Below are positions 3,239-29,300 of a DNA stretch of 64,000 nt, piece by piece (position 1 is the first letter of the stretch; each line of letters begins with the position of its first letter). The DNA lies in assembly GCA_903901225.1 (NCBI GenBank), contig CAIUQE010000003.1, positions 23,461-87,460 of the forward strand. Reading direction: 5' to 3'. The translations under genes were made by a program, and so were the position numbers. The notes under the pieces were generated by a model. That model did no database searches. It was not told the DNA's origin and was given only the letters and a program-made list of their open reading frames with translations. The DNA is from Candidatus Omnitrophota bacterium (lineage in GTDB: Bacteria; Omnitrophota; Gorgyraeia; Zapsychrales; Fredricksoniimonadaceae).

Positions 3239-4141
3239 TTATGTAAGATTATCGAAAAATACGCCTTCATCTCGATTAAAGCGAATGTGCGTTGATCCCG
3301 AGTAACCGTCAGGGCTCTTAATAATTCGTATTTCTGCGATTCCTAGGTTTTCAGGTTTAGGCTCATAATAGTCTTCCCGGTAAAGCTGCAAGACAACATC
3401 TGCATAGACGTCGAAACCACCTTCCTCGCGGGCGATCTGGGATAAGAGATGTAACGGCCGTGTTTTTTCGTGCTCTTCTGTACGACGGGATAGCCAACTC
3501 GTCACAAAAACTGTTACTTCATTGCGAACAGCCATTGCTTTTAACCTTCTGGTGACCATCTCGCACGCCTTATAGCGCGCTGCTCCATCCAATAAAGCGA
3601 CATCTTCAATACACTGCAATGGATCGATCACAATGAGTTTTACCTTATGTTCAGCGACATGTTTCTTTACTATGCGCTCAACATCCTGGACAGTACGCGT
3701 CATGGAATCAATGTAAATTGGCAACTCCGCGACTATCCCCACACCCGCAACAAACTTTGATCGCTCTGTTCCATCCATCATCCCACAACGCGCTTTAGAC
3801 CTATCCACTTTGCCTTGTGCGCAAATAAGCCCAAAAACAATGTTCCGCTGTGTTAATTGGCCCAACGAGAAATACAATACAGGCACCTTTTGCTTAGCCA
3901 CATGCGCTGTGATAGAAGCCGCAAAGGCAGTCTTCCCCATTGCCGGCCGAGATAAACAGGCGAGCAGTTCACCAGGATGAAGTCCAGACAACATACGGTC
4001 AAGATCATTAAATCCAGTTGTAATCCCAGTGAGGCCAGGCCCCTGCCGTTCCATCCGTTCAATCTTATGAAGGACATCGCCAACGACATCTTTTACCAGC
4101 ACTGGGCCGGGCTTCTTCTTTAGGAAATTTGTTAGTAACAT
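3239..4141 (-). CDS. DnaB-family replicative helicase, RecA-fold C-terminal domain only (phage/plasmid type)
   Basis: DnaB motifs H1/Walker A (GFNDLDRMLSGLHPGELLACLSRPAMGKTAFAASI), Walker B (KLIVIDPLQ), and C-terminal block (RRLKAMAVRNEVTVFVTSWLSRRTEEHEKTRPLHLLSQIAREEGGFDVYADVVLQLYREDYY). Lacks the N-terminal primase-binding domain. Confidence 0.6.
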   Translation of the reverse strand: MLLTNFLKKKPGPVLVKDVVGDVLHKIERMERQGPGLTGITTGFNDLDRMLSGLHPGELLACLSRPAMGKTAFAASITAHVAKQKVPVLYFSLGQLTQRNIVFGLICAQGKVDRSKARCGMMDGTERSKFVAGVGIVAELPIYIDSMTRTVQDVERIVKKHVAEHKVKLIVIDPLQCIEDVALLDGAARYKACEMVTRRLKAMAVRNEVTVFVTSWLSRRTEEHEKTRPLHLLSQIAREEGGFDVYADVVLQLYREDYYEPKPENLGIAEIRIIKSPDGYSGSTHIRFNRDEGVFFDNLT

Positions 4142-4212
4142 GACTCACCTTTCATTATTGGGGGCATGTGCTTAATATAAATCAGGCAGGCGACAGCATC
4201 ATGTCGCGCCAA

Positions 4213-4240
4213 TAAAAAAAGCGCCCTATAAAAGGCGCCC
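4213..4240 (-). terminator. rho-independent terminator closing the nine-gene ssp-like operon
   Basis: Plus strand reads aaaaaaaGCGCCctataaaaGGCGCcc. On the minus strand this is a GC hairpin followed by TTTTTTT, about 150 nt downstream of the protease gene stop (4389). Confidence 0.4.
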
Positions 4241-6657: not shown

Positions 6658-6667
6658 CTTATAAGAC

Positions 6668-7600
6668 CTAATTAGTTAATAAACGCACTCTTTGAGAATA
6701 CGAAGGCGTATCAATAGAGATGTACTTTACCGAATGCTTTTGGCAATAAGAAAGAAGATTGACCACGAGCTGTTTAATATCTTTCCTATAAGGACGAGGA
6801 TCGTCCTTTAACTGATTGTGAAGATTCGCCGTGATTTCTCCAAAATACATCTCTTTACTTGGCTTCCCGTCCAACATCGTAATCAGCCAACGAAAAACCT
6901 TGGAATCATTAAAAGATTTTCCGCCATCATCCTCAACGGAAAACAGAAGCTGATCATGTAACATACCTTCAACCGAAACCTGCTCCTCACTCAAATTCAC
7001 CCAAGGTAGATCATGAACCCAAAGATCAGCACTTTTAGGCACCACATTGTCCGGCCACGAGGCAAGATTAGATAAACCCGGAGCATTCTTTTGCGTCGAT
7101 GCATCTTTCAGAAAGGCGGCCATTTTAAGCAATGTCGCAGAATCTATTGGCGCTGCACTCTTCAATATCTGATCTACAAATAATAAATTCTCTTTTGAAG
7201 CTTCCGCCTCAACAACAGCCTCCAGATTCCCTTCCCCAAACAATTTCAATCCGTTAGTTGTAAAATTGGCGCTACCAACAAAGATCTTTCTTTGATCGAT
7301 CGAATAAATCTTTGCGTGTAAATTGTCAATTATTCCGACACGGAAATTGGCTTCTAAAGCCGTTCGGACGGCATCGAGCGATGAGGCTCCTGATAGGAAA
7401 TCATGCGGGGAAAGACGTGCCACTAAACGAACTTCAACGGCAGGGGATATATTTCTGACAAGCCATTCAATGGCAGGGCTAGTCACATATGCACTAATAA
7501 CAGTGATAAGTTTACTGGTCCTAAACTCTTGTTCTAGAATCGACTTTACTTCATCAGACTTTAGTAAGCGTCCAACAGACTTATCTCCAGGCAATGACAT
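6668..7600 (-). CDS. phospholipase D (HKD) family nuclease
   Basis: HxK(x)4D(x)6GSxN motif: LHAKIYSIDQRKIFVGSANFTTNG. 310 aa. 10-nt gap to the downstream cysteine desulfurase gene; 25-nt gap to the upstream GHKL ATPase gene. Confidence 0.6.
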   Translation of the reverse strand: MSLPGDKSVGRLLKSDEVKSILEQEFRTSKLITVISAYVTSPAIEWLVRNISPAVEVRLVARLSPHDFLSGASSLDAVRTALEANFRVGIIDNLHAKIYSIDQRKIFVGSANFTTNGLKLFGEGNLEAVVEAEASKENLLFVDQILKSAAPIDSATLLKMAAFLKDASTQKNAPGLSNLASWPDNVVPKSADLWVHDLPWVNLSEEQVSVEGMLHDQLLFSVEDDGGKSFNDSKVFRWLITMLDGKPSKEMYFGEITANLHNQLKDDPRPYRKDIKQLVVNLLSYCQKHSVKYISIDTPSYSQRVRLLTN

Positions 7601-7625
7601 TACTGGACTCCGATCAACAATATAC

Positions 7626-9446: not shown

Positions 9447-9461
9447 TGTTTTCTCCCTGTT

Positions 9462-11063: not shown

Positions 11064-11081
11064 AACAAAATATCCTAGTAA

Positions 11082-11891
11082 TCAAAGATTACAAATCTGA
11101 CACGGGAGCTGGTCATCCTCATGATCTAGCACACTACTTAAAACTTCAACAAGCGGCCTATTGCTTTTGCTCTTCAATTCACGCTCTAGCTCTGTCTCAT
11201 GCTTGCGCTTAATTTCAGCCATACGCTCTGGCTGGACAAGCTCCTCTAAACTTTCACCGGCAATCCATGTGAAACGCTTGCCAGTGACAGGATCTGACTT
11301 CTCATACGCCATTGCTCTCTTAAAAAGATCTGGATGCCTTTCATAAAGGCCTACCCATTCCATGCGCCGCTGGAAGAAACAAAAGAAACAACCGGAACGA
11401 GAGCGCCACTTGTAATACTCAGGCAACCCCAACCCAGCCTCCTCGAGAATTTTCATAACCCCCTGTTTATCAATCTTGTGATCAACAAAAGGGAAAACAC
11501 TTGTAATATCCGCCTTGGGATTCTGATATCCCTTACGACCTTGCTCATCGTATCTGATACCAACATAACTTATTGCCTTATCTTTACCCACAAACTTCTC
11601 TAAGGGCTCAAGTTTAAGATTAACAGTGCACCAACGCATCCTTTGCGACGGCAGAAAGTAATTATTCCTAACCAACCACCAATCAAAGTCCTTCTCGGCG
11701 CTCAATCGCACAATCGGCTTGCCAAGATATTTCTCAAGCTTATGCAAATAGTCATAAGTTTCTTCAAGCTCGACGCCAGTATCACAAAAGAAATACTCAA
11801 TATCCTGGACCTTGTCCCTCATAAAAATAGCAAGAGCACTGCTATCCTTACCGCCGGAGATGCCTAATATATGACGAACTTTCTCTGCCAT
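11082..11891 (-). CDS. sspD: PAPS-reductase/ATP-pyrophosphatase family protein (SspD-like; BREX type 4 BrxP-like)
   Basis: PP-loop ILGISGGKDSSALAIF at the N-terminus. 269 aa, too short for DndC. Sits immediately downstream of the giant ATPase gene. Confidence 0.65.
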   Translation of the reverse strand: MAEKVRHILGISGGKDSSALAIFMRDKVQDIEYFFCDTGVELEETYDYLHKLEKYLGKPIVRLSAEKDFDWWLVRNNYFLPSQRMRWCTVNLKLEPLEKFVGKDKAISYVGIRYDEQGRKGYQNPKADITSVFPFVDHKIDKQGVMKILEEAGLGLPEYYKWRSRSGCFFCFFQRRMEWVGLYERHPDLFKRAMAYEKSDPVTGKRFTWIAGESLEELVQPERMAEIKRKHETELERELKSKSNRPLVEVLSSVLDHEDDQLPCQICNL

Positions 11892-11899
11892 AAAATCCT

Positions 11900-14800
11900 C
11901 TATTTAGACTCTTTAACGAGCATTTTTCTCAAAACTTCGGAAAGTGCCGATAAGAAGATCTCGGGTTTATCAGACAAACCCCGTTCATCAATAAAATCAA
12001 CCAAGCTTTGCTCTAATTGCGAAATCCGCTCTTGGTATTCATCCTGAATGTGAAAAACCTTGGCCATTTCACCATGCTTAGACGAAGTAACCGATATCTG
12101 AGCAATCTCCCCTTTTATGTCGCCAGAAATCCTTCCCCGCTCTAAAGCTATCTGTTCATATTTCTTAATTTTGTGATGGAAAGCTGCCATCTCATGCTCA
12201 TACTTTAATAAATCAGCATCCGTCCATTCCAAAGGGGGGCGACCAGTGACAACTGTAGCAATCGATTCAAGCCAGGACTTATTAGGCAAATGATCCGCCA
12301 CCCGAACCAAAAACCCCTTAAATGAAGGATCCAGAGTTACATCAATGACCAATTTAGACCTTTCCGAGATATTCGACCGCGCGTCAGAAGCTCGAGGATC
12401 AACATTAAAGGCTCGATAAAGAATCTCTTGAATGTCGTTAAAGAGCTTATTCTCCTCTTTCTGTAACTCGGCAATGCTTTCTCTGAGCTTCTCAACAAAA
12501 GCCTTAACCTCAGATTCCTGTTCCCCATCGATATTCTGAAAAGGCTTAAACCCGCAAGCAATCGGTAAATCACGGTACAAAAGCCCCGCAGGTTCTTTGG
12601 CTTCTAAGAGACACGCCCTTACTAAGCGAGTTCTTTCAGAAACATTGCGAGTCTTTTTAACATAAGTAGGAAGCCTGTTTGCAAACTCACAAAAGATTTT
12701 AACAATCTGAAGGATCGAGCCTTTTTCCTTAAACTTCTTTTGCCCCGCTTGATCCAAGAATGTCGCTATTAAATTGTCAAAAACAACTGCGCGCACTCCT
12801 TCTATCAAACAAAGCTGAACTTCGTAGTTCTTAGGGACCCTCGCCATCAATTCAAAATCCAACGCCGTTGGTTTAGGCAAAAATGTTCCCTGGTCAAACA
12901 AGGCAAATTCATTCTCATAAGCCATATAAAACGCAAGCAATACGACCGGAATAACTCCTTCACGAACACCAAAAGGCGGTTGCATTAAAAACTGATACAA
13001 TTCTAAAAGGGGGATTTTCCTTTCTCCGTTTTCTTTCAAATAAGATAAAAGACCTTTCAAGACGCCGCGCCAATGTGGGGCAACCTTTTCAGGTTCGCGA
13101 ACAAACTCCCAATAGCCATCGCCTGACTTTTGGTGCAGCTGCCCTTCAAAACACACAGCCATATACATGCTATATTCGGCAGGATATCCCTCGATCCCTA
13201 GACGCTCCTTCATATGCGAACTCATCATCCCATCCATCAACAATCGCCGACCCTGCGTCGCTGAGGAAGATATTCTCCGACGATTCAAAATTTCGTTCTT
13301 AATAATCGGCGCTTTAGAATAAATCTTATCGCAGATGTCCGAAACCCACTTGCTCAGAAGCTTTTCAGAAACCCCCTTCCGAGCCCCTTCTAAATCAAGC
13401 CAAACGACTGATTCCCCCAGTTCCCGGTCAGGTGCAAAGAATGTTTCATACGCGAGAGAAAGGACTTGTTTCTCAACCTCCAATAAGCGCGAATCAAGCT
13501 CACGCCGGGCGATTGCGTCACCCTGTAAAGCTGGGGTTTCTTTTCTAATCAACTGAAGCGCTACTAATTCAACAAAAGCATCTAACAAACGAATCGCATC
13601 ATTCGGCCGACTTATAATTGTCGCTCTTTGTACTTGCTTAGACGCACCTTCCAATAACGATTGAAGCTCCTTTGATGATCGCCGAACCGAATCTGTTGAT
13701 AAACAAAACAAGATTTGTCCGTCTACTCCTTCGATTGGCTTCTTCAACTCTTCCATTAAATCTTTATCAAGAACATACTTCTTCTTAAAGAACCGCAGAG
13801 TGCCAGATGTGAATAAATGCCTTTTGGCAACCTGAGGTCGTAACGGGAACTGCTCATTAAGCCTAGCAACCAAATCTTTGTGTGAAAACCCAGCAGCTTT
13901 CTTCTCAGATAACAACTGCTCGATATCTATATCACTGCCCCCCCAAATTGCGTATGACCCAGAATAACGGCGAAAAACAACAACCGATCTTCTCATAAGA
14001 GCACTGACACCCTCTTTAAGCCTCTTACGTTCAGCCGGGCCTCTGAGATCCAGCGCACAAATCAGTGCTTCTTCATTGACGGATATTCCTAGCGTATCCG
14101 CCATAATGTTCAACATTCCTATCGTCTTGAGCAAAGACCTCTCAAACGCATCTGAAGTCCTCGCCAAGGCGTGCTCAATCTCAGCCCAACGCTTTCCATC
14201 ATGCTGCACGAAAAGCTTCCCACCAAAATTTACAACAAAATAATCGTAGAGATTCGCAAGGGTAAAAAACTGCACCTTCGCCATATCATGAGGCAATTCA
14301 TTCTGAGCAAGAAAGTCCAAGAAGCCTTTGCTTTCAGATGATGTAAGAAAAGCAAACAAGCTGCGCTCATTCTGCAAAAAGCGGCTTCTAAAGAGTGGCG
14401 CCAAAGAGATGGCCGTCAAGGGGTGCAAAGGAAGACACTTTTCGAGAATCTTTATGACTTTCTCAGAAGACAATGAGGAGGGACTTGAAAACACTTCACG
14501 GTAAGCTTTAAATAATGGCTCGACCGTTATATCAATAACCTTTTTCTCTGTTGATGACCCAATATAATCTATGGCAGATGAAATGAGCTTAACAGTCTGA
14601 TCACTGGGGTCGACAAAAGATATCTCTTCGAACCTCCCTTGGATTTTAGCCCACTCATTACGTTTGTTGGATTCAAGTTTGGAAGCATAGCGATCAAAAG
14701 ACTGATGCAGAACGGTAAAGAAAAGAATCGGAAAGTCGCTAGACCTAGACGAAAACTCGGCGAGTCTTTGAAGAATGAAAATATCATTCTCCGAATTAAG

Positions 14801-15424
14801 CGCAGCAGATTCCAACGACTTTCCTAACTCATCAATTACCAGCAATAGGCCAGGAACATGATCCTTTCTCAAATACTCGCAAACATCTCTAAAAACACTC
14901 AGAACATCATCACTCGTGACAACCTTCCCCTGCTCTCCACGCTTTAAAAGAAGCGCGATGTCAGCGAAGACCTGGGGTCTCCTTCCCCTCGCCCCTTCTA
15001 AATGTTCAACTAAGCCGCGCATCACACCCTTGAGAATGGCAAGTTCTAGAGGTTCACGACTAGCTGAAATAATCGATCGAAAGAACCCACTACCTTTCTT
15101 GCCGATCGTCAAACTGGAAAAAAGCTTCTCCGAAAGTTTACTGCTGGCGCTAGTTAACAAATCCCTACTTAAAGAAGCTGCCCTGCACCCCTTACCACCG
15201 AGCAGATTCTTTAAATAAACGATGAAAGCTGACTTCCCTGTCCCATAAGGACCAATGATAGACCACGCCCTTGTCGAAACCGGTGAAGACAAACTCTTCG
15301 TGATACTATCAAGAACCTTCAGCCCAGATTCAGTTAAGACATACCCGTCGACATGATCGTCCATCTCCACTTGAACGGAACGATGGAAACGCGCCCGGAC
15401 TGTAAATAATTCATTAAATTTCAT
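11900..15424 (-). CDS. sspC: large P-loop ATPase, 1174 aa (DUF499/BrxC-like; SspC-like)
   Basis: Walker A IIGPYGTGKSAFIVYL near the N-terminus. The size and position between a DUF4007-like gene and a PAPS-reductase gene match SspC/BrxC architecture. Start overlaps the upstream gene stop (15424). Confidence 0.5.
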   Translation of the reverse strand: MKFNELFTVRARFHRSVQVEMDDHVDGYVLTESGLKVLDSITKSLSSPVSTRAWSIIGPYGTGKSAFIVYLKNLLGGKGCRAASLSRDLLTSASSKLSEKLFSSLTIGKKGSGFFRSIISASREPLELAILKGVMRGLVEHLEGARGRRPQVFADIALLLKRGEQGKVVTSDDVLSVFRDVCEYLRKDHVPGLLLVIDELGKSLESAALNSENDIFILQRLAEFSSRSSDFPILFFTVLHQSFDRYASKLESNKRNEWAKIQGRFEEISFVDPSDQTVKLISSAIDYIGSSTEKKVIDITVEPLFKAYREVFSSPSSLSSEKVIKILEKCLPLHPLTAISLAPLFRSRFLQNERSLFAFLTSSESKGFLDFLAQNELPHDMAKVQFFTLANLYDYFVVNFGGKLFVQHDGKRWAEIEHALARTSDAFERSLLKTIGMLNIMADTLGISVNEEALICALDLRGPAERKRLKEGVSALMRRSVVVFRRYSGSYAIWGGSDIDIEQLLSEKKAAGFSHKDLVARLNEQFPLRPQVAKRHLFTSGTLRFFKKKYVLDKDLMEELKKPIEGVDGQILFCLSTDSVRRSSKELQSLLEGASKQVQRATIISRPNDAIRLLDAFVELVALQLIRKETPALQGDAIARRELDSRLLEVEKQVLSLAYETFFAPDRELGESVVWLDLEGARKGVSEKLLSKWVSDICDKIYSKAPIIKNEILNRRRISSSATQGRRLLMDGMMSSHMKERLGIEGYPAEYSMYMAVCFEGQLHQKSGDGYWEFVREPEKVAPHWRGVLKGLLSYLKENGERKIPLLELYQFLMQPPFGVREGVIPVVLLAFYMAYENEFALFDQGTFLPKPTALDFELMARVPKNYEVQLCLIEGVRAVVFDNLIATFLDQAGQKKFKEKGSILQIVKIFCEFANRLPTYVKKTRNVSERTRLVRACLLEAKEPAGLLYRDLPIACGFKPFQNIDGEQESEVKAFVEKLRESIAELQKEENKLFNDIQEILYRAFNVDPRASDARSNISERSKLVIDVTLDPSFKGFLVRVADHLPNKSWLESIATVVTGRPPLEWTDADLLKYEHEMAAFHHKIKKYEQIALERGRISGDIKGEIAQISVTSSKHGEMAKVFHIQDEYQERISQLEQSLVDFIDERGLSDKPEIFLSALSEVLRKMLVKESK

Positions 15425-16362
15425 TATGCCTTCCGCTCGAAATACTTCTTTAGGTATTCCATTGGCTCCGGTGTTGGCGACCTGCGATAAAGCTGCCTTA
15501 ACCCAGACGTCTCATCAAAAGTAATTTGCCCATTTGTTAAACGTTCAATCTTCTCAAACCTACGTATCAAAGAATCCTCGTCAATCTTAAAAATAAGCCC
15601 TGGCGACGCCTCACCATAAGCAAGCTCCTCCAAGGAAAGAACATCTCCTTGCCCCTTTACTTTATGCCAGTAATCAAGCACAGCAAAAACTAAAAGCTCA
15701 TCGGGAAGACCCTTCTTGTCCCCACGTGAAAAAACAAATAATCCCTTCTGGCCAGCTTCAAACACTAGCTCCAACTCCACCAAAGGGCAGTCTAATGAAT
15801 CCTCTAAAAGCGTCGCGACAGAAACATTCTTTGACGGAACATAAGACCTGACAAAACAATCAATATCACGGGTTAAAGTATTGGGCGTCAATCTCGAATT
15901 ATTCTGACGAGCAAACTCCATCAGCTCCGCGAACAGATGCTCCTTAGTAAACTCAACCGAAGAAAGCTTATTAAATGCATAAAACCACGTCGAAGCTCCG
16001 CTCTTTTCCGAGGCCAAGAACCAGTGAAGAAGCCATAAAGTTGCCCCGTCTTCTAAATATGGATCCCAGCCATTATCAAAAAACAATTTCTTACCTAATG
16101 AAGTGACCTGAACTCCAGAAGCCTCTCCATTCTCTGCAGGAAGATCCTCGATCACCTTTAGTATCGTGGCCCAGTACTTAATAGCATCCACCATATTCTT
16201 ACCGACACCTAGACACACTAATGCGTCATCCTTTCTAAACAAGAAAGAATCAGAAGAAACAGCATCGACCACCTTTTTTAACCAGGTATAGCGAAAAGGG
16301 AAAGTGCCATGACCGGAGAAATTAAGCTTAAAAGAAGATTTTTCCAATGTTGAAACGCTCAT
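15424..16362 (-). CDS. sspB: DUF4007-like protein (SspB-like), first gene of operon
   Basis: N-terminal FSGHGTFPFRYTWLKK motif, which I recall as typical of DUF4007. No DGQHR (DndB) motif. 312 aa. This call is from memory of the family, not a search. Confidence 0.4.
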   Translation of the reverse strand: MSVSTLEKSSFKLNFSGHGTFPFRYTWLKKVVDAVSSDSFLFRKDDALVCLGVGKNMVDAIKYWATILKVIEDLPAENGEASGVQVTSLGKKLFFDNGWDPYLEDGATLWLLHWFLASEKSGASTWFYAFNKLSSVEFTKEHLFAELMEFARQNNSRLTPNTLTRDIDCFVRSYVPSKNVSVATLLEDSLDCPLVELELVFEAGQKGLFVFSRGDKKGLPDELLVFAVLDYWHKVKGQGDVLSLEELAYGEASPGLIFKIDEDSLIRRFEKIERLTNGQITFDETSGLRQLYRRSPTPEPMEYLKKYFERKA

Positions 16363-16656
16363 TCGAACGACTTTCTATGTTCTTTTTCTTAGTTGTTAAT
16401 AAAAGATACTATTTAAAAAAACAAATAATCTGCACTTCTGTGCCAGCAACTAACGTAAAAGGCACCGATTCTCATCAAATCCTTGATTTTTTAACTTATA
16501 ACATATTAACATTATTCTTTTAACTTTCTACTGCTTAATAGGTCTTACACAATCCTAGTAAATCTTTTAAATTAAATCCTCTCTAATTTCGACCTATTTA
16601 TGCTTCTAGATAAGCCCAAAACTGATGCCCCCCATCACTGACCACCAATCACTTCA
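16363..16656 (-). promoter_or_regulatory. AT-rich intergenic region upstream of the ssp-like operon (presumed promoter/operator)
   Basis: About 290 bp AT-rich spacer between two minus-strand genes. The operon ATG lies at 16362. No confident -35/-10 assignment. Confidence 0.3.
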
Positions 16657-16989
16657 CTAAGCAATCTTAATTATGCGATCACCGTTAGGATTGCTCGGAT
16701 CTTCCATCGGCACATGATACTCAACTGAGAACTTATCGCCGACCTCTACCTTTAATTTCTTTGCTAAAACAATCCCAGAATCATTCCATTCTTGCCAATT
16801 AAATACCGGCTGGTCATAGTGCCGTTCAAAATCAATAACCCACTCTGCAAACAACTTTTCAAGCTCTTTGGAAATCCCATATTCTTCAGGAAAGCCACAA
16901 ACAGAATCAGCAATGTTCCCGCCACATTTATATGGAGGTTCATCAGGATACCGAAGCCAAGCGTACGGCCCCATCCCAAAATCGGCCAT
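16657..16989 (-). CDS. hypothetical protein
   Basis: ORF 16657..17019, likely starting at MADFGMGPYAWLRY. No domain recognised. Confidence 0.3.
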   Translation of the reverse strand: MADFGMGPYAWLRYPDEPPYKCGGNIADSVCGFPEEYGISKELEKLFAEWVIDFERHYDQPVFNWQEWNDSGIVLAKKLKVEVGDKFSVEYHVPMEDPSNPNGDRIIKIA

Positions 16990-17015
16990 AATAACAAGGG
17001 TTAACGTATGATCCC

Positions 17016-17165
17016 TCACTTAATCTTTTCCCCGCACCCAGGACAGTCAACTTCGTCGTCAAACAAAATACTTTTGTCAACTGAAGTGCCACATTTCGGA
17101 CACTTGATCGTGTCCGCACCGACAACAGCATCGTAAATAACAAATTCATCGAATAAGTCATCCAT
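17016..17165 (-). CDS. small zinc-ribbon protein (~49 aa)
   Basis: MDDLFDEFVIYDAVVGADTIKCPKCGTSVDKSILFDDEVDCPGCGEKIK carries two CxxC pairs. Confidence 0.35.
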   Translation of the reverse strand: MDDLFDEFVIYDAVVGADTIKCPKCGTSVDKSILFDDEVDCPGCGEKIK

Positions 17166-17285
17166 GTTATCTCCCTTACTGAATAGAACTATAAAACACA
17201 CCTGCGACAACGTTATGTCGCGTAGAATAAAAAAGCCTCGCCTTTAAGCGAAGCTCGCAAAATTACACCCTTATCGTAGGCCCAT

Positions 17286-18116
17286 CTAAATCTTTGAGGC
17301 ATCCATGACAGAATCTAGCTTTAACAATGTATGTTCGTTGTATTCCAAAACTCGCCACTCATGAATTTTATTCCAGAAAACAATTAAGCTTTTCAAACAA
17401 TAAGATTTATCGTCGAGAATGTTTTTAAGCACTGAATGCGTCTTCCGATCTTCTGGGGACGGCAAGGTCCAATTAGTACAAACAGGGTGATTGTGATACT
17501 GCCGCACTTCGTCACAGCTATTTGCTTTTATATATTCTCGCCAATTACGCGGATCGTCCGCAGGTTTACACCTACGGGCGCTGCCGATTCTAGCTGTAAC
17601 TTTTATAACAATCCCATTTCGGCAAAAGGCGGTTAACCAAACCTCTTTCTTTTCCTTTGACATGCCAACACATAAACTCTCTTCAAAGTCAGCAACTTTC
17701 TTCCCTACCCCACCAAAAGCGCTTTTGAAAGTTTGCCCTTTTTCTCGATCCTTGTACTTCGCGAAAACATCCAAAACTTTCTTTGAAAGAAATCTGATCC
17801 TTTCTTCCAGACCATGAATCTCCTGTGTGATTTTCTTAAAAGGAGAAATCAGTTTGTTCAGAAGCCAATAAAAGAAACCGACCGAAACTATACCTGCCAA
17901 CGGAACAAGGTACATCCAAGCCATCACCATGCCCGCGTCGGCCTTTACATGGCTTAAATATGAAACAAGACATACAACGACTAAGGTCACCGGTATACCG
18001 ACGATAAAGTTACGAATTCTCAACAATGATGTTAAACGAACGCTTAGATTGTCATACTCCGACTTGTTCGCTTGTACTAAAGCTATATGGTTAGGTTCGT
18101 ATGATTTCAAATACAT
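17286..18116 (-). CDS. membrane-anchored protein with possible JAB/RadC-like metalloprotease motif
   Basis: Two predicted TM helices (IVGIPVTLVVVCLVSYL, MAWMYLVPLAGIVSVGFFYWLL). C-terminal YHNHPVCTNWTLPSPEDR resembles the RadC/JAMM HNHPSG...PS..D motif, but the spacing is atypical. Confidence 0.3.
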   Translation of the reverse strand: MYLKSYEPNHIALVQANKSEYDNLSVRLTSLLRIRNFIVGIPVTLVVVCLVSYLSHVKADAGMVMAWMYLVPLAGIVSVGFFYWLLNKLISPFKKITQEIHGLEERIRFLSKKVLDVFAKYKDREKGQTFKSAFGGVGKKVADFEESLCVGMSKEKKEVWLTAFCRNGIVIKVTARIGSARRCKPADDPRNWREYIKANSCDEVRQYHNHPVCTNWTLPSPEDRKTHSVLKNILDDKSYCLKSLIVFWNKIHEWRVLEYNEHTLLKLDSVMDASKI

Positions 18117-18140: not shown

Positions 18141-19127
18141 TCACTGAATGGATGCTAAGTAATCGGTCACTGTCTTCTTAATCTGCTGCCTAAAATTCTC
18201 GGGCTCAACAACACGAAGGCAGGGAATCCAATTCATAATTATATGAGAAACCTCCTCAGGATGCCCTGGGACGGTCTCTATAAGCATCGAGCCATCCGCT
18301 TCTTCTTTAACAATCTTCTGTAACGGAAAGTATTTACGTTCTTTGAAATACTGCACCGCTTCAGGCGCTACTTTAATCAACACTCGCTCTCCACGAACTT
18401 CATCAAACCAAACATTCACGCTGTCCTCAAGAATCTTGTCGATGTTAACTGACGGCGCAAACGACTCCTCCAAAATCTGCACATCCTGCACACGATCTAC
18501 CCGGTATTTCTGGATCTGCTTCTCACCTTTCTTAATCGCTATCAGATACCAAAACCCGTCAAAGAACGCGATCTTGAGCGGCTCAAGACAATACTCTTTC
18601 TCGATCTGGGCTGCGGAAACATATTTAATTGCGATGCGATTGCTTTCAAGAATGGCGGCTTCAAGATACTTGACCTGAGATGTTACAGGAAGAGGACTCC
18701 GCTTCGCTGGGACCTTAGCGTAATATGGCGTATAAAGATCTTTCGCCATTATCCGCTTAAATAAACTCCGGAAGGATTCCTCGAAAGTCCCTCCCAATCC
18801 ACAGGCTACTTCAAACATAAAAGACAGAAGCGAAGCCTGCTCTTCTGACAACGAGACCTTGCGTAATGAAAACCCTTCCATAAATTGATGGCGCCCGTTC
18901 TCCAAAGTCTCGATCGGATACCCGGCATCATGCAGGATCTTCAGATCTCTTTGAACAGTACGCTGGGTAACATCAAGAGTCTCAGCAACCTCCTTTGATG
19001 ATATGGACTTTCCTTTGTCCAAGATCGAAAGCATGGTAATCAGCCGTTCCACTGCCTTCTTATGCCCGTCGGCCTTCTTGCCTTTGCCTGTCCGTTTGAA
19101 TGTCACGATCTTCTTTTTCGCCGGCAT
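18141..19127 (-). CDS. WYL-domain transcriptional regulator (HTH-WYL-WCX; BrxR/CapW-like)
   Basis: HTH region ISSKEVAETLDVTQRTVQRDLKILHDAG, WYL motif FFDGFWYLIAI. Start ATG at 19127 with SD AAGGA. It overlaps the stop of the upstream nuclease gene by 4 nt. Confidence 0.6.
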   Translation of the reverse strand: MPAKKKIVTFKRTGKGKKADGHKKAVERLITMLSILDKGKSISSKEVAETLDVTQRTVQRDLKILHDAGYPIETLENGRHQFMEGFSLRKVSLSEEQASLLSFMFEVACGLGGTFEESFRSLFKRIMAKDLYTPYYAKVPAKRSPLPVTSQVKYLEAAILESNRIAIKYVSAAQIEKEYCLEPLKIAFFDGFWYLIAIKKGEKQIQKYRVDRVQDVQILEESFAPSVNIDKILEDSVNVWFDEVRGERVLIKVAPEAVQYFKERKYFPLQKIVKEEADGSMLIETVPGHPEEVSHIIMNWIPCLRVVEPENFRQQIKKTVTDYLASIQ

Positions 19128-19129
19128 AA

Positions 19130-20698
19130 TTATCCTTTCTGGAGTGCTTCTAAAGCCGCCAGTATGTCCACCATAGCTATGGTATCTAGCGCGCAATAAT
19201 CCTCAAGATCAGTGTACACTTTTTGTCTATCCGCAGGATCAACTTGATCTCCATAAGTCACGCGGGAATACTCCGTCGTAGCCTGTCCCCCGTCAGAGAT
19301 TGCCATGTCCTTGTAACTCTTTCCGCCTAAGACCGGTAGCACCTTCTTGATCGAGGCAGAACCACGCTGATCGGGATGATAATACAAGAAACTCCGAAAA
19401 ACATCTAAGAGGTCAGCCATTCTCGAACAAATATCAGCAATCCGAGACTCGTACTCCGGGAAAGAGTCCTTCATCTTATTAAGGACGTGCGATTCTTCAA
19501 ATGTGCGGTTGTAGACAACAACATTCCCCTGAATGCCAGTACACGCGCACAAGGAATCCAAGAAATCCTTCCTGGGATCGGCAGGGCTCTTTTGCAAGAA
19601 TGAATAGTGCTTCAATTCTCCACCGGGGATCTCTTGGACATGCACAGAGAACTGAATCGGGATTTGCTGGTATGGCGACGTTCCATTGAATCTTGGGATC
19701 GCCTCAAAGATCGTCTCAAAATCAATAAAATATAACGGGTACTTCATCCCCTTAACAAATGCCACGATGGCTGGCAAATCAACATGAGGTTTCCCCGCCA
19801 AGGCACACTGGTATTGAATGGCCCTAGTATCAGACAACTTGGCATTCTTAGGAATATCTTTCAAAAGCACTATCCCCTGATCCAGCATTTGAAAAGCCTT
19901 GTCCTTATTGCCCCTAAGCTCCAATACATTGCCCGGCGGAAGAAATGCCCAGCATGATAGCTTCATCTGGCACTCATAAGGTTTATTGCAATGCTTTCCT
20001 ATGGAAATCCCCGGACAGGTAGGCATATCAACGATTGCCAAAAAGCCATCAATCGTCTTTTTAATTTCGCCGGACAACAACGCAACCTTGTCGGTCACAT
20101 CAACCAATGCAAAGAACTCCTGCACATCAATATCGCCATCGCGAACATAATCACTATTGATGTGCATCAGAAAGCAGCGCCCAATCTTCAAGCCGGCCAG
20201 TTCGTAACAGTATCTTTGAAAAGCAATGTCCTGAAGGTATACATCTTTAAGATCGGTGCCGCACTTTACTTCGACAATATCCCAATACCCTATTCCTAAA
20301 CTTGATGGGACCAAGATATCGGCGCGTGAAAAGAGCCGCCCAGCCATCACCCCCGCCTCGTAGATCGGTTTCGGATTTGCCGCCGCCAACAAAGTCTTGG
20401 TTTCCTCTATATTCCGCAAGAAATCATCTTCCTGGATGCGAGCACCTCCGGGGAATCGAGTCATCGCGAGCTCGCCAACCTTATGACCGACATCAAATAC
20501 CTGCTGAAGCCTATCAGATGGTAGCGGGATCGCCTCAGGGGCATTGCATCGCATCCAAAGCAACTTTGGACACTGCAAACCATTCAAGAACTTCGACTTT
20601 GTGAGAACTTTCGGATCCTTGACTACTTTCCTGTCTCGGACAAAATCGTAAACAGCATCGTTCTTCAGCTTTTGTGACTCGAAATTTTCGTCATCCAT
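19130..20698 (-). CDS. PD-(D/E)xK (Cas4/RecB-like) nuclease fused to DEDD 3'-5' exonuclease (DUF2779-like)
   Basis: PD-(D/E)xK core GYWDIVEVKCGT in the N-terminal half. DnaQ-like Exo I motif YFIDFETI in the C-terminal half. ATG at 20698 preceded by SD AGGGG. Confidence 0.5.
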   Translation of the reverse strand: MDDENFESQKLKNDAVYDFVRDRKVVKDPKVLTKSKFLNGLQCPKLLWMRCNAPEAIPLPSDRLQQVFDVGHKVGELAMTRFPGGARIQEDDFLRNIEETKTLLAAANPKPIYEAGVMAGRLFSRADILVPSSLGIGYWDIVEVKCGTDLKDVYLQDIAFQRYCYELAGLKIGRCFLMHINSDYVRDGDIDVQEFFALVDVTDKVALLSGEIKKTIDGFLAIVDMPTCPGISIGKHCNKPYECQMKLSCWAFLPPGNVLELRGNKDKAFQMLDQGIVLLKDIPKNAKLSDTRAIQYQCALAGKPHVDLPAIVAFVKGMKYPLYFIDFETIFEAIPRFNGTSPYQQIPIQFSVHVQEIPGGELKHYSFLQKSPADPRKDFLDSLCACTGIQGNVVVYNRTFEESHVLNKMKDSFPEYESRIADICSRMADLLDVFRSFLYYHPDQRGSASIKKVLPVLGGKSYKDMAISDGGQATTEYSRVTYGDQVDPADRQKVYTDLEDYCALDTIAMVDILAALEALQKG

Positions 20699-20815
20699 AA
20701 TTTCACCCCTAACCCCACAATAGCTCCTAGCAAGACTTCTAATGATACCATGCGACAAGAATATGTCGCTGACAATTTGGTGGGCGTATCGAGTTAGAAC
20801 AGCTCTTCCGCTATA

Positions 20816-21196
20816 TTATTGATTGCAGTCAGAAATTCTCTTGAGCACCACAACGCTTGACGACGGGCGCATTGGCGTCCTGTCCTTGTCACAATATAGA
20901 GATGCTTTTATTGCCTCGATCAGATCAATATCTACATAAGGGAAACAAACCTCAACCTGCCAAGTATCACTCACCCTCACATCACCCTTTTCAAACACCG
21001 GATCATCAATAAAGAATGCCGGGCACTTGAATGCCACGGCAGGCATCGAATCATCCACTTCAAACTGGCGACCGCAGGTAACCACAATGGCAGACTGCTC
21101 AAGATATGCCCGTAAAGCGCCATTAGATGCCCCTTTTAAGGCTTCCCATGAACGCCGGCACTCATCCAACTCCATTCTAAAGTTATCCCAAGTCAT
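20816..21196 (-). CDS. hypothetical protein
   Basis: ORF with internal ATG at 21196 preceded by SD AAGAGGG. No domain recognised. Confidence 0.3.
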   Translation of the reverse strand: MTWDNFRMELDECRRSWEALKGASNGALRAYLEQSAIVVTCGRQFEVDDSMPAVAFKCPAFFIDDPVFEKGDVRVSDTWQVEVCFPYVDIDLIEAIKASLYCDKDRTPMRPSSSVVVLKRISDCNQ

Positions 21197-21297
21197 AATC
21201 ACACCCTCTTGGGACAAGAATAAAGCACCCTTACGACAACGTGAGGTCGTTCCATAAATCAAATCCTATAAAAGCCTAACGAATAGACGCGACAGCG

Positions 21298-21834
21298 TCA
21301 TGTCGCAACTTGGTCATAAGACCCACTCTTTTCTGTATATCTCAAGAAATAACCAGATTTCCTTCGCGCCTTCGTATCCTTGCTACCAGGCGGACGACCA
21401 AGCACCTTGCCTTCCTTCTTAGCACGCTCAAGTCCCAAAAATGTTCTCTCCTGTATGATGGATCTTTCAAATTCCGCCAGAGCCGAGAAAACGTGAAACA
21501 TTAACACTCCCGACGGTGTAGCCAAGTCTATGTTGTCTCGAAGCGATACGAACACAATCCCCTTGTCCGTCAACTCTTTGACCGAAAGAATCATCTCGCT
21601 TAAACTCCTGCCCCACCTGTCAAGCCGCCAAACCAAAACACCTGCAAACTCCTTTCTCCTAAGGCGATTCATCAATCCGGCCTGTATCGGTCGCGAGTTT
21701 CTTGTCGATTCGACCTCCTCAAATACTTCATAGGAATAGCCCATCCTTTCGGCAAAAGCAACAAGCTCAAGACGCTGGTTCTCCGGGCGCTGATCTCGTG
21801 TTGACACTCTGCAATAAATAGCTCGATCCTTCAT
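21298..21834 (-). CDS. serine recombinase (resolvase/invertase family, small)
   Basis: N-terminal catalytic motif AIYCRVSTRDQ (Ser nucleophile) followed by the resolvase core (GVLVWRLDRWGRS). 178 aa with a basic C-terminal tail. Confidence 0.7.
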   Translation of the reverse strand: MKDRAIYCRVSTRDQRPENQRLELVAFAERMGYSYEVFEEVESTRNSRPIQAGLMNRLRRKEFAGVLVWRLDRWGRSLSEMILSVKELTDKGIVFVSLRDNIDLATPSGVLMFHVFSALAEFERSIIQERTFLGLERAKKEGKVLGRPPGSKDTKARRKSGYFLRYTEKSGSYDQVAT

Positions 21835-26582: not shown

Positions 26583-29300
26583 CTATTGACCTCCCGGCCG
26601 GACATACCTTTCCCAGAGATCCTGAAATTTGGCCAAGTCAATTTGGTAAGTCGGCTGCTTTCTGCCGCCAACCGTCCCCTGCTTTGAAACAACACCAACT
26701 TTCTTTAACTTCTTCGTAAGCGCATTGGACGTCTCCAGCGATTCAAAAGATTCCTGCTTCTGAAAATAACTCAGCACCTCAGGAACCATAAATATCTGAA
26801 CGGCGCCTTTGACATCGCTAGGGCGAATATCTTCATCATCAAACATCGCCTTCAAAACGGTCAGAACCTTGTAGGTTTCATTCTCCGTGACGCTATCTGC
26901 GTGCTTTTCCTCAAACGCCATCTCACTCCAAGCAGACATGGTAGCAGTCACCTTTAAGGTCGGATCTTCATCGTCTACCTGGTTGGCTATCAATAAAATC
27001 GGCCTCCATATGTCAAGTTCCCGGTTATTAAGATGCGCCATCCCTTGAATGCCATCAGCCCCGCTCTTCTGATAACGGTCTGACAATGCCTTGGCGTAGG
27101 TCAGGGCAAAGACATATAGATCATCCCTAATGCTCTGCTGATACTTGCCGTTCTCCTCTGTATCCATATATGTATCGACATCTTCATCCTCTTTCTTACG
27201 CAATAAATTGATCCGAACGGTGCGATCCTGAAGGACATTATCAATATCACTAATCCCCGCGAACATCTTCGGAGAGTATGCGCTATATGATTTGACAACA
27301 AATTTACCATCACCGGTTGACTCACACCGCTTCACGACGCCGCTCTTACAGAACCCGGCTTTCAGAATGCTTCCAAGAGCCGCCTGGACGCTCTTATCTT
27401 TCTCTGTAACCTTCTCAAATTCATCGATGAACATCGATGTCAGATTGTTTTCTATGTCCCTGTAAAGCACCGCCTCTGTCGGGCTGGTAATAACATCACC
27501 ATTAAAAGCCAGGCCCGCGATTATTTCCATCGTCAGTGACTTGCCGGATCCTTTTTCAGCGTTGATCCACACATATGGAAAATAGCGAAACAGCATAAAG
27601 ACATAAGTCCCCATGACCCACAAGACGATATATTGCAAGTGCGCGCCTGCCGGGAACTTGATAAACCGTTTAACATAATTGTAAATCTTCTTATAAATGT
27701 CCGCCGCCTTAACCTGATACCGACCGCTCACAAAATCATCGATACCTTTTCCAGAGAACCGAACCGTGTCGACAGTGTCGTGCTTAAGAATAAGCCCTTG
27801 GCTCTTGGCATCATCAAATGTAAATATATCTCGGTCGGACGTAATAAGGCACAAAGTACCCTGCGCCTTTACGGTAAAAACCATCCTGCCATCAGCGTAG
27901 TCCTGCGCCGGATGAACCATAGCATGGTCCTGTTCTTCCCGCACTCTCTCGAGTAGCTCTTCCTTACTGATGGATTTCGGCGCATCGGACTGCTTGTCCT
28001 GCTTATCCTCTTTGCGATAACCGTTCAAAACTTTCTCGTAGCTCTTCAACTCGTTTTCTTTAAGCCCAAAATGATCTTTAATAACATGCCGCAAGATTGC
28101 ATCGCCCTGTGCGATATTGTGACCAGCGATCGCTTGGAGTATTGGGTCAAGTACTCCCGGAAGCAGAATTTTGTCTGTATCAGCCGCTATCGTCTGAATT
28201 AGCGCTTTGAGTTCGTTTAATTCATTATCAGAAAGGGCCTCGCCTACCTGGCCTGAAGCCCTCATCGTTACCTTTGACCTGGCCTTCTTAATAGAATAAT
28301 CCAAGTACGCATCACCCTGCTCGCGGTACTTAGCTCCGATTGCGTATTCCTTGAAGATCTTCCTGATGTCTTCATCCATCAAGCCAACTTTTACAAGCTC
28401 ACGCAGGACATAGAAGTCTGCTTCGCTCCTTGAGTCAAAATGATCTTCAGCTGTCTTGCCTACCCTGATCAAGTGTTTAGCGCTTTCGGGTATCTTCAAG
28501 TCCTCTATCTTGAACGCGCGGGAACCCTTTTCATCGGAATCGTCCTTTGTTTTTTGCGCACCTTCTTGCCCGTTTTGGGAAGATGTCCCCGACGTAAACT
28601 GTGTGTTCTGTCCTGCTTGAAGTAGTTGTATATTCCTGCTAACCTCTTCAGGAAGAATCAGCTCAAAATCATCCAGGCAGTATCGTCTATTAGGCTCAAA
28701 CCTCAGCATCACAACATCTTTCACCGCATCCTTAATTTTATAGTTCTTTGTTCCAGGCGGCCGAAGGATTCTGGGCAAATCAGAAACCGTATCTCCTCCG
28801 ATATGAACTTCGATAGCCTTCAGAATCTTCTTCACGTAAGCCGGATCTTTTATCTCAAGCGGCTCCTTTAACAGCCAAATCGGGTACACTCCATGTCCTG
28901 ATGAAACAATAATCGACGGCTTTAACGGGAACGCCTCTATTGCTGCGAGGGCCTCTTCCAGAGTCTTATGTTTCGGTTTCTTCTTGTGGCCAACCTCTCC
29001 ATAATCAACGTCGCTCCATAAGCACACCAGATATTTGATGCTTTCTACGGTTCCGACTCCGTGTATCTCCCGTGGACACATACCAACATAAAAGTTACTT
29101 GCTGACCTGTAATTGATAACACTGTCGATATCTTTGTGAAACTTTGGCTTTACGCTCCCGCCGCTAAAGATCTCCCGCGTCTCAATATATCCACCATGAA
29201 CATCAAGATAATCGGCAAACATTGCGTGCAGAAAATCTTTCCTTATTGACTTTGCTTCTTCAGAATTATCATCCATTCGTACTCCCACGCTTTTACGCAT
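26583..29300 (-). CDS. replication primase-helicase (Prim-Pol-like N-terminal domain plus D5/P4-type SF3 helicase)
   Basis: N-terminal DxD (LVCLWSDVDYGE) and SSGHGVYPIWLL, which is primase-polymerase-like. Central Walker A NAEKGSGKSLT and Walker B TSMFIDEFEKV, which are P4/D5 helicase-like. The start could be the ATG at 29300 or at 29276 (SD GGGAG). Confidence 0.5.
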   Translation of the reverse strand: MRKSVGVRMDDNSEEAKSIRKDFLHAMFADYLDVHGGYIETREIFSGGSVKPKFHKDIDSVINYRSASNFYVGMCPREIHGVGTVESIKYLVCLWSDVDYGEVGHKKKPKHKTLEEALAAIEAFPLKPSIIVSSGHGVYPIWLLKEPLEIKDPAYVKKILKAIEVHIGGDTVSDLPRILRPPGTKNYKIKDAVKDVVMLRFEPNRRYCLDDFELILPEEVSRNIQLLQAGQNTQFTSGTSSQNGQEGAQKTKDDSDEKGSRAFKIEDLKIPESAKHLIRVGKTAEDHFDSRSEADFYVLRELVKVGLMDEDIRKIFKEYAIGAKYREQGDAYLDYSIKKARSKVTMRASGQVGEALSDNELNELKALIQTIAADTDKILLPGVLDPILQAIAGHNIAQGDAILRHVIKDHFGLKENELKSYEKVLNGYRKEDKQDKQSDAPKSISKEELLERVREEQDHAMVHPAQDYADGRMVFTVKAQGTLCLITSDRDIFTFDDAKSQGLILKHDTVDTVRFSGKGIDDFVSGRYQVKAADIYKKIYNYVKRFIKFPAGAHLQYIVLWVMGTYVFMLFRYFPYVWINAEKGSGKSLTMEIIAGLAFNGDVITSPTEAVLYRDIENNLTSMFIDEFEKVTEKDKSVQAALGSILKAGFCKSGVVKRCESTGDGKFVVKSYSAYSPKMFAGISDIDNVLQDRTVRINLLRKKEDEDVDTYMDTEENGKYQQSIRDDLYVFALTYAKALSDRYQKSGADGIQGMAHLNNRELDIWRPILLIANQVDDEDPTLKVTATMSAWSEMAFEEKHADSVTENETYKVLTVLKAMFDDEDIRPSDVKGAVQIFMVPEVLSYFQKQESFESLETSNALTKKLKKVGVVSKQGTVGGRKQPTYQIDLAKFQDLWERYVRPGGQ

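Follow-up and report, generated by a model that had tools for sequence, protein, structure and literature searches.

In the 64-kb window analysed here (positions 23,461 to 87,460 of contig CAIUQE010000003.1 from a Candidatus Omnitrophota bacterium), a gene for a two-domain nuclease of the DUF2779 family is followed directly by a gene for a WYL-domain transcription regulator. We propose, with moderate confidence, that this pair belongs to a DriD-type regulon responsive to single-stranded DNA (ssDNA) and carried by an integrative mobile element, of which the dual nuclease is the signature cargo. As the regulator is DriD-like and predicted operators are located at at least four promoters of the island, an element circuit inducible by DNA damage or ssDNA is likelier than stand-alone phage defence. 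The domain identities, the conservation of the pair, and the operator motif with its enrichment and geometry are treated below as observations.

The Nuclease and Regulator Genes

The pair consists of the following features (positions are those of the window).

19130..20698, minus strand: DUF2779 dual-nuclease gene, an open reading frame (ORF) of 522 amino acids (aa), stop codon included in the coordinates (ATG at 20698, TAA at 19132-19130)
19799..20608, minus strand: Cas4-like PD-(D/E)xK nuclease domain, about residues 31-300 (D127, E143-x-K145, Q161; cysteines C43, C237, C243 and C249)
19133..19747, minus strand: DEDDy 3'-5' exonuclease domain, about residues 318-522 (D326, E328, E401, Y501, D505)
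18141..19127, minus strand: gene for a 328-aa DriD-like regulator with a winged helix-turn-helix (wHTH), a three-helix bundle, a WYL and a WCX domain (Pfam, phmmer, Foldseek)

The nuclease is a member of PF11074 (DUF2779) in which a Cas4-like PD-(D/E)xK domain is fused to a DEDDy exonuclease domain, both with intact catalytic residues. The Pfam profile matches residues 323-449 (E 3.8e-39; 134.3 bits against a gathering cut-off of 23.3) and is covered end to end (positions 1-126 of 126), and the N-terminal half has no Pfam match. The ORF is real and not a chance reading frame because 2096 homologues are found at E<=1e-5. In alignments of 17 and of 79 homologues, C43, E143, K145, Q161, C237, C243, C249, E401, Y501 and D505 are invariant, and D127, D326 and E328 are kept in at least 90% of the sequences; the pattern of four invariant cysteines is consistent with an iron-sulfur (Fe-S) cluster. 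An AlphaFold2 model based on the 79-sequence alignment has a mean predicted local distance difference test score (pLDDT) of 93.1. In Foldseek searches of the PDB, the N-terminal half matches Cas4 (8d3l_I, E 5e-5; 4ic1; 4r5q), human EXO5 (7lw9) and RecE (3h4r), and the C-terminal half matches 3'hExo (1zbh), ERI-type enzymes including ERI2, and TREX1. A profile search against PDB sequences yielded one weak match, to the Pol I exonuclease region. No defence family of PADLOC-DB v2 was matched (0 families), nor was any entry in PHROGs or in 50,697 phage genomes.

The stop codon of the nuclease gene (TAA, 19132-19130) and the start codon of the regulator gene (ATG, 19127-19125) are separated by TT (19129-19128), and the ribosome-binding site of the regulator, AGAAAGGA, lies within the 3' end of the nuclease gene. 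An earlier note on this DNA, made from the sequence alone, had placed both ORFs correctly on the minus strand and had claimed a tight operonic pairing, which this 2-nt gap and the position of the ribosome-binding site bear out; its 4-nt overlap of stop and start and its length of 523 aa for the nuclease need correction, such an overlap (ATGA) occurring instead between the nuclease and WYL genes of the homologous locus L084. Residues, conservation and fold matches agree with its assignment of an N-terminal PD-(D/E)xK core to WDIVEVKCGT (residues 139-148) and of a C-terminal exonuclease motif to YFIDFETI (LYFIDFET being residues 322-329), and the HTH-WYL-WCX architecture that it gave to the regulator, with FFDGFWYLIA, is likewise present. 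Its description of the dual-nuclease architecture as uncharacterised is in line with the literature: the same two-domain fusion was described in 2014 as family F.17 (Majorek et al., PMC3985635) and in 2026 for the quasi-essential MMSYN1_0389 of JCVI-syn3.0 (PMC13621843), and was called uncharacterised both times. In the papers found here that mention DUF2779, no link to WYL regulators is reported.

The regulator contains HTH_11 (residues 28-75), WYL (155-218) and WCX (247-322) domains according to Pfam, and in its structure model (pLDDT 81) the AlphaFold2 secondary structure fits the order wHTH, three-helix bundle, WYL and WCX. In PADLOC, it matches generic CRISPR-associated WYL models only. 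By sequence (phmmer), its only relatives of solved structure are DriD (9cu3, 9pfq and 8tp8; E about 2e-8) and PafBC. By fold, Foldseek ranks DriD (E 1.2e-14) and PafBC (8e-14) ahead of CapW (7e-9) and BrxR (1e-8), and the alignments to DriD 8tp8 and 9pfv are full-length (E about 1e-14). The DriD residues Y168, R176, Y192, W206 and R207, which contact ssDNA (PMC9186387), align to Y169, K177, Y194, Y208 and R209 of the regulator, so that five of the eight contact positions are kept or conservatively replaced; within the regulator subfamily, Y169 and Y194 are invariant and R209 is nearly so. For the WYL factors characterised so far in this group, namely DriD, PafBC and SiwR and also the repressor CapW, ssDNA is the ligand. 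The regulator is provisionally assigned as a new, distant member of the DriD/PafBC-like activator group.

Predicted Operators and Promoter Architecture

A promoter/terminator scan, in which several hairpins of common sequence were first noticed, led to a set of predicted operators and associated elements.

21289..21306, minus strand: canonical operator GCGACATGACGCTGTCGC, ahead of the 126-aa ORF; it overlaps the stop codon of the resolvase gene
21273..21278, minus strand: TAGGCT, a TAnnnT -10 candidate, exactly 10 nt past the 21289..21306 operator
20752..20769, minus strand: variant operator GCGACA-TATTCT-TGTCGC, 54-71 nt upstream of the nuclease ATG
20742..20747, minus strand: -10-like TATCAT, preceded by TG, 4 nt past the variant operator
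17204..17221, minus strand: canonical operator GCGACATAACGTTGTCGC, heading a Zn-ribbon ORF (17016-17165) and a 120-aa ORF (16657-17019)
17188-17193, minus strand: TATAGT, exactly 10 nt past the 17204..17221 operator
4190..4207, minus strand: canonical operator GCGACATGATGCTGTCGC, heading a DnaB-C-terminal-type helicase gene
4174-4179, minus strand: TATATT, exactly 10 nt past the 4190..4207 operator
3239..4141, minus strand: the DnaB_C-type replicative-helicase-like gene under the 4190..4207 operator
17233..17256, minus strand: intrinsic-terminator-like hairpin and T-run, closing the predicted nuclease-WYL transcript and directly preceding the 17204..17221 operator

Four exact copies of the palindrome GCGACA-N6-TGTCGC are present in the window, where shuffling predicts 0.14. 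All four copies are in the low-GC island, 39-110 nt upstream of minus-strand start codons, and the genes behind them are the 126-aa ORF, the nuclease gene, the Zn-ribbon ORF and the DnaB_C helicase gene. One of them, at 20752-20769, is the inverted repeat that the earlier note had proposed to seek in 20699-20815; in its second interval, 16363-16656 upstream of sspB, none is found even when up to three mismatches are allowed. As no operator precedes sspB, its suggestion that the WYL protein regulates the ssp operon is not supported.

Pooling of 21 sites gives the 18-mer consensus GCGACATAACGCTGTCGC. A TAnnnT element starts exactly 10 nt after the 18-mer in 17 of the 21 sites but in only one of 21 when the opposite orientation is scored, the -10 assignments being consensus matches only. 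The centre of the operator is also asymmetric, position 9 being A in 20/21 sites and position 11 being G in 18/21. At the canonical sites the palindrome occupies the place of a -35 element; the pooled operator promoters have no -35 hexamer, and about half of the 21 sites are preceded by a T-run left by the preceding terminator. This arrangement resembles that of DriD, whose box is ATACGAC-N7-GTCGTAT and whose structurally analysed site, ATACGACAGTTACTGTCGTAT, contains CGACA-N5-TGTCG (PMC10853764); cryo-EM places the DriD sites over the -35 position, with a constant spacing to the -10 element, in promoters that have no -35 element (PMC13004042).

The variant operator covers the -35 position and spacer of a sigma70-like promoter, in which the left half-site serves as a -35 surrogate at a 16-nt spacing. 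The same variant with a T-rich centre is also found upstream of the DUF2779 gene in L003 and L084; in both, a canonical site lies further upstream, and the variant overlaps a good TTGTCG-16-TATAAT promoter. We infer that the variant site might be a basal, probably auto-repressed promoter nested in an inducible unit.

The operator co-occurs with the regulator gene in the related loci. Close loci with a linked WYL gene (L002/L082, L003, L004, L075, L083 and L084) have the core in front of DUF2779 and of other genes as well. L001 differs in that its WYL gene is 2.7 kb upstream; here the DUF2779 gene is preceded by a half-site only, and the full site comes after the WYL gene. The WYL-less relatives L005, L006 and L071 lack the core. 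Overall, the 7 loci with a close WYL orthologue contain 17 sites in 80.6 kb, and the 75 other DUF2779 loci contain none in 732 kb. Related boxes are present in equivalent positions at more distant cassettes: GCGACA-N5-TGTCGC precedes the AAA-DUF2779-WYL cassette of Rhodoferax and occurs three times in Diaphorobacter, with boxes upstream there as well, TAGACA-N6-TGTCTA and TAGACA-N6-TGTCCA precede the WYL and DnaB_C genes of Aliarcobacter, respectively, and L015 has TTGACA-N6-TGTCAC. The placing of an operator before DnaB_C is seen likewise in L083 and in the Aliarcobacter plasmid.

Modular cassettes of terminator, operator, 10-nt spacer and TAnnnT separate transcription units of the island (17233-17256 with 17204-17221, and 4207-4232), and similar terminator-operator cassettes are present in L001, L003, L004 and L083.

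Recurrence of the Nuclease-WYL Pair

In every one of the close relatives examined (56-63% identity, in Omnitrophota-type metagenome bins), an HTH-WYL-WCX gene lies directly downstream of the nuclease gene, and the flanks of the pair vary: some loci have the same DUF6745/DnaB_C/AAA backbone, others housekeeping genes, AbiE, a YhaV toxin or a large serine recombinase. A WYL gene is located within 6 kb in only 10 of 80 species-representative DUF2779 loci (42-61% identity), and adjacency to WYL occurs in at least six separate branches of a neighbour-joining tree of the nuclease family. Among the immediate neighbours of 80 family members, no other conserved partner was found. Plasmid-borne nuclease homologues (30-35% identity; proteobacterial and Campylobacterota plasmids) have an adjacent WYL gene in four of the seven cases inspected, with the orders AAA+ ATPase-DUF2779-WYL in Rhodoferax and Diaphorobacter, WYL-DUF2779 in Sphingobium, and DnaB_C-PD-(D/E)xK-DUF2779-WYL in Aliarcobacter. 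The pair is always in a variable, mobile-element or plasmid context.

The neighbourhood of DUF2779 genes in general is highly varied (104 Pfam families among 70 downstream genes), and upstream neighbours lean to repair and defence (Pol III alpha, Y-family polymerase, UDG, OGG, GmrSD, AbiEii). A cassette of a double-AAA+ ATPase (2x PF00004), DUF2779 and WYL recurs on the Rhodoferax, Diaphorobacter and Sphingobium plasmids (L085, L089, L091). Three further WYL genes and a metallophosphoesterase gene lie within 6 kb at the Diaphorobacter locus; the Sphingobium plasmid has, beside its WYL-DUF2779 pair, a second WYL gene in divergent orientation to a gene that RefSeq annotation assigns to the TM0106-family RecB-like nucleases, the domains of which Pfam did not confirm. 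At L093 (4834-6990), a solo PDDEXK_1 nuclease of the Cas4/AddB type, without DEDD, is followed after a 3-nt spacer by a WYL homologue of 39% identity. This suggests that the WYL subfamily pairs with RecB-like nucleases more generally. An operon of helicase, GHKL ATPase, DUF2779 and PLD genes is present at 2433-8443 of L087, a Planktothrix agardhii plasmid (NZ_LR882954).

Predicted Transcription Unit and Mobile Island

The nuclease-WYL pair probably shares its transcript with two flanking ORFs.

20816..21196, minus strand: 126-aa ORF, between the distal operator and the nuclease gene
17286..18116, minus strand: 276-aa ORF (214 aa from an internal ATG), starting 24 nt past the WYL stop codon

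The 21289..21306 operator is the likely distal promoter of this transcript, and the homologue of the 126-aa ORF in L003 is likewise preceded by an operator. The 276-aa ORF, called from the internal ATG as 214 aa in other assemblies, is probably the last gene. It has two predicted N-terminal hydrophobic helices and an HNHP...PSPED motif. An assignment as a RadC/JAB protein is not supported: the ORF has no Pfam match and only a weak match (E 0.002) to the N-terminus of poxvirus D5/E5 primase; a 214-aa gene that follows a WYL homologue in L092 is unrelated to it.

The region from position 1 to about 29,500 has 42-49% G+C, against 55-62% elsewhere in the window, and its left end lies outside the window. 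Its mobile-element backbone includes a small serine recombinase (21298-21834), DUF6876, DUF6745, the DnaB C-terminal-type helicase (3239-4141) and a gene for a 905-aa primase-polymerase/DUF3631 protein (26583-29300); the window contains no tRNA gene. An identical element with the same gene order is found on contigs of up to 97 kb in other samples. The low-GC mobile-element setting and the identical element elsewhere indicate that the pair is island cargo, and not the conserved core-genome pair whose possibility the earlier note had raised; its context varies between relatives.

The ssp operon (5506-16362, minus strand), which the earlier note had placed about 2 kb from the pair, has the order SspB-SspC-SspD-SF2 helicase-GHKL ATPase-PLD-SspA, and sspB starts 1.8 kb downstream of the pair. 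The insert in this operon is unusual, consisting of an SF2 helicase (9462-11063), a GHKL/HATPase_c_3 ATPase (7626-9446) and a PLD nuclease (6668-7600). The same trio is located beside SspBCD, PAPS-reductase, DndB or cysteine-desulfurase genes on Mesorhizobium, Trichormus, Geminocystis and Hymenobacter plasmids and at L094, and a metagenome scan with the GHKL ATPase gave two loci only. The trio is neither PbeABCD, in which PbeA is an HKD-helicase fusion and PbeC a CxC ABC ATPase, nor SspFGH, which has other features, nor SspE, and is a candidate for an uncharacterised phosphorothioate-linked restriction partner.

A 271-aa protein encoded at 4389-5204 (minus strand), just upstream of the 4190-4207 operator, matches PADLOC LmuA (Lamassu; E 6e-10) and, faintly, a trypsin-like peptidase. 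Just past the GC boundary, at 30275-31771 (plus strand), is a classic AAA (PF00004) ATPase gene, beside which no operator was found; AAA genes of this kind recur in related elements (L083, P0014 context) and head the plasmid DUF2779-WYL cassettes.

A Model for an ssDNA-Responsive Regulon

In the model that we favour, a homodimer of the WYL regulator would bind the 18-bp palindromes of consensus GCGACATAACGCTGTCGC and, when occupied by a ligand, most likely ssDNA, would recruit RNA polymerase at the canonical sites by analogy with DriD, thereby switching on the units behind them. Three units may be controlled in this manner: one from 21306, which takes in the 126-aa ORF, nuclease, WYL and 276-aa ORF and runs to the hairpin and T-run (17256-17233); one from 17221, with the Zn-ribbon ORF and the 120-aa ORF; and one from 4207, with DnaB_C, DUF6745 and a 247-aa ORF. 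At the variant site 20769, immediately ahead of the nuclease gene, the operator takes in the -35 position and spacer of a sigma70-like promoter, so that basal or auto-repressed expression is possible there. Binding of the motif by the regulator, the sign of regulation, ssDNA as the ligand and the biological role are the conditional parts of this model.

The Cas4-like Fe-S PD-(D/E)xK domain would process 5' ends and ssDNA and the DEDDy domain would act as a 3'-5' exonuclease; with two such domains, DNA ends or ssDNA might be trimmed or degraded from both polarities once the unit is induced. For the element, the nuclease might process DNA in response to damage or invasion and perhaps remove the ssDNA signal as well; repair, recombination, destruction of foreign DNA and clearance of the ssDNA signal are each possible. 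The DriD regulon of Caulobacter is likewise multi-promoter and includes an exonuclease gene, recJ (PMC10853764). An extension of the model, which we regard as distinctly unlikely in this full form, is that the pair constitutes a closed signal circuit and the induction switch of the element, in which the nuclease makes or clears the short ssDNA ligand and the regulator turns on the replication helicase and the other cassettes through modular terminator-operator-(-10) promoters. If true, this would be a means for a mobile element to sense DNA damage or entry independently of LexA and CI, and would provide the first functional handle on the DUF2779 family, including the quasi-essential JCVI-syn3.0 gene.

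Several observations weigh against the proposed ssDNA-responsive regulon. Three of the eight DriD residues contacting ssDNA are not kept in the regulator (R178 is replaced by Y179, K202 by Q204 and R204 by Q206). The HTH of the regulator alone does not retrieve DriD in a sequence search, and the resemblance of the operators is therefore not backed by homology of the recognition helices; the half-sites are moreover spaced by N6 here and by N5 in DriD, one extra base pair. It is the atypical operator, repressive in appearance, that stands directly before the nuclease gene, and operators overlapping promoters are typical of the WYL repressors BrxR and CapW, too. The link between operator and WYL gene is one of co-occurrence, partly confounded by shared ancestry because the site-bearing loci belong to related mobile elements. 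Finally, the island carries defence genes (Ssp), which leaves room for a defence role of the nuclease.

Alternative Explanations

The somewhat unlikely alternative of a stand-alone defence against phages or plasmids supposes that a BrxR/CapW-like repressor silences a toxic dual nuclease until infection-derived ssDNA appears, whereupon the nuclease degrades invader or host DNA. Such a repressor would fit the overlap of the operator before the nuclease gene with a sigma70-like promoter, and CapW senses ssDNA as well; however, the fold score of the regulator is 5-6 orders of magnitude nearer to DriD/PafBC than to CapW/BrxR, its gene lies downstream of the nuclease gene and not in the usual upstream position of BrxR/CapW, 17 of the 21 operators have activator-type geometry without a -35 element, and the same operator heads a DnaB-like helicase gene and small ORFs. 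The surroundings point both ways. The pair is in a low-GC island with the Ssp system and the LmuA-like gene close by, its relatives are found beside AbiE, YhaV and GmrSD, and the plasmid AAA+-DUF2779-WYL cassettes resemble multi-gene defence cassettes, whereas the nuclease itself has no PADLOC, PHROG or phage match, repair-type neighbours are seen in the wider family, and a minimal Mycoplasma has a quasi-essential member of it (PMC13621843). A defence role of the nuclease is thus possible but has no direct support. These results speak against the independent defence or anti-defence module envisaged by the earlier note and against its BrxR/CapW analogy, DriD and PafBC being nearer by sequence and fold and the operators having DriD-like half-sites and promoter geometry. 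Nor is the module self-contained with two genes: copies of the operator also head three other transcription units in the island, and the flanking ORFs are probably co-transcribed.

Alternatively, the dual nuclease could assist, as an accessory effector, the phosphorothioate-linked restriction module that lies inside the ssp operon of the island and comprises the SF2 helicase, the GHKL ATPase and the PLD nuclease, with the WYL protein tuning expression of the dual nuclease. This is quite improbable: no operator precedes sspB or the trio, most DUF2779 genes lack such neighbours, and DUF2779 is absent at five other Ssp/Dnd-linked trios (Mesorhizobium, Trichormus, Geminocystis, Hymenobacter and L094), even though the Planktothrix plasmid operon holds DUF2779 inside a helicase-GHKL ATPase-PLD series whose members are orthologous to those at 9462-11063, 7626-9446 and 6668-7600 of the window (E 2.5e-145, 8e-125 and 1.5e-12), and PLD and DEAD helicase genes come after DUF2779-WYL on a Rhodoferax plasmid. 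We consider it very improbable that the palindromes serve a different regulator, or act as structural elements such as terminators or recombination sites, with the targets of the WYL protein lying elsewhere or being limited to its own gene. In favour of this reading, the initial scan marked two of the four sites as terminator-like hairpins, and one site overlaps the end of the resolvase gene; but the palindrome stems are only 6 bp, the sites usually come after the T-tails of real terminators and are not terminators themselves, and the fixed 10-nt spacing to TAnnnT is directional (17/21 versus 1/21). As for the co-occurrence with WYL, which is confounded by shared element ancestry, the L082 pair lies between chromosomal housekeeping genes without an element backbone and still has three sites; the WYL protein is the only regulator common to all site-bearing loci, and the half-sites match the DriD box.

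Significance

DUF2779 is widespread in bacteria and archaea and quasi-essential in a minimal Mycoplasma. What is new here is the recurrent nuclease-WYL pairing, an operator with DriD-like promoter geometry, and a predicted multi-promoter regulon on a mobile element. DUF2779 nucleases appear to be wired repeatedly to sensors of the DriD/PafBC type for ssDNA, and predicted operators here are also located at the operon of a replicative helicase, which offers the hypothesis of a DNA-end-processing enzyme induced by DNA damage or ssDNA. The promoter design of DriD would be extended far beyond the Alphaproteobacteria and onto mobile elements. As a caution, a WYL regulator in an island need not mark phage defence.

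Comparison with Known Systems

The window nuclease shares with the DUF2779 family (PF11074; F.17; MMSYN1_0389; NCBIfam UU173) the fusion of a Cas4/DUF83-like domain to a DEDD(y) domain of RNase H fold, and the catalytic D/E/K and D-E-E-Y-D residues. MMSYN1_0389 keeps two of the Fe-S cysteines, whereas the window nuclease has all four, and similarity to the Mollicutes UU173 subfamily is weak (E 8e-9, below the cut-off). Unlike the family as described, the window nuclease is on a mobile island and is coupled to a WYL regulator. With Cas4, EXO5 and RecE-type nucleases it shares the N-terminal fold, the D..ExK and QxxxY motifs and the four-cysteine pattern, but its nuclease domain is fused to a DEDDy exonuclease and its cysteines are spaced C-x5-C-x5-C. 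Comparison of 20 window proteins with PADLOC (CRISPR arrays were not searched) revealed no cas1, no cas2 and no other credible cas gene, the sole matches to cas models being generic helicase domains and a weak Cas12f match on the 49-aa Zn-ribbon ORF. The TM0106/COG2251 nucleases (family F.13 of Majorek et al.) have a sister architecture of PD-(D/E)xK and RNase H-fold exonuclease domains and belong to another Pfam family, PF13482.

Among WYL regulators, BrxR and CapW share with the window regulator the wHTH-WYL-WCX fold, palindromic operators, ssDNA sensing (CapW) and location in an island with defence genes, and are weaker fold matches than DriD (E about 1e-8 versus 1e-14). BrxR and CapW are usually encoded by the first gene, upstream of the named defence system that they repress. 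Here, in contrast, the regulator gene follows the nuclease gene, no PADLOC system is attached, and most operators have activator geometry. PafBC, the DNA-damage activator of mycobacteria, and SiwR are WYL activators triggered by ssDNA, with binding sites that replace the -35 region, and PafBC is the second-best structural match of the regulator. PafBC is, however, heterodimeric and recognises, only in company with RNA polymerase, a -26 motif that is not palindromic, whereas the sites predicted here are palindromic, as expected for a homodimer.

DriD of Caulobacter crescentus has the same architecture of wHTH, three-helix bundle, WYL and WCX and is the best match of the regulator by sequence and by fold, although identity is about 17-21% and the HTH is not alignable by sequence. 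Unlike DriD, the regulator is encoded on a mobile element and appears to be co-transcribed with a nuclease, and a predicted operator lies at its own operon, whereas DriD does not autoregulate. The half-sites CGACA/TGTCG are common to DriD and the predicted island operators, and the promoter design at the canonical island sites is DriD-like, the site directly before the nuclease gene being the exception.

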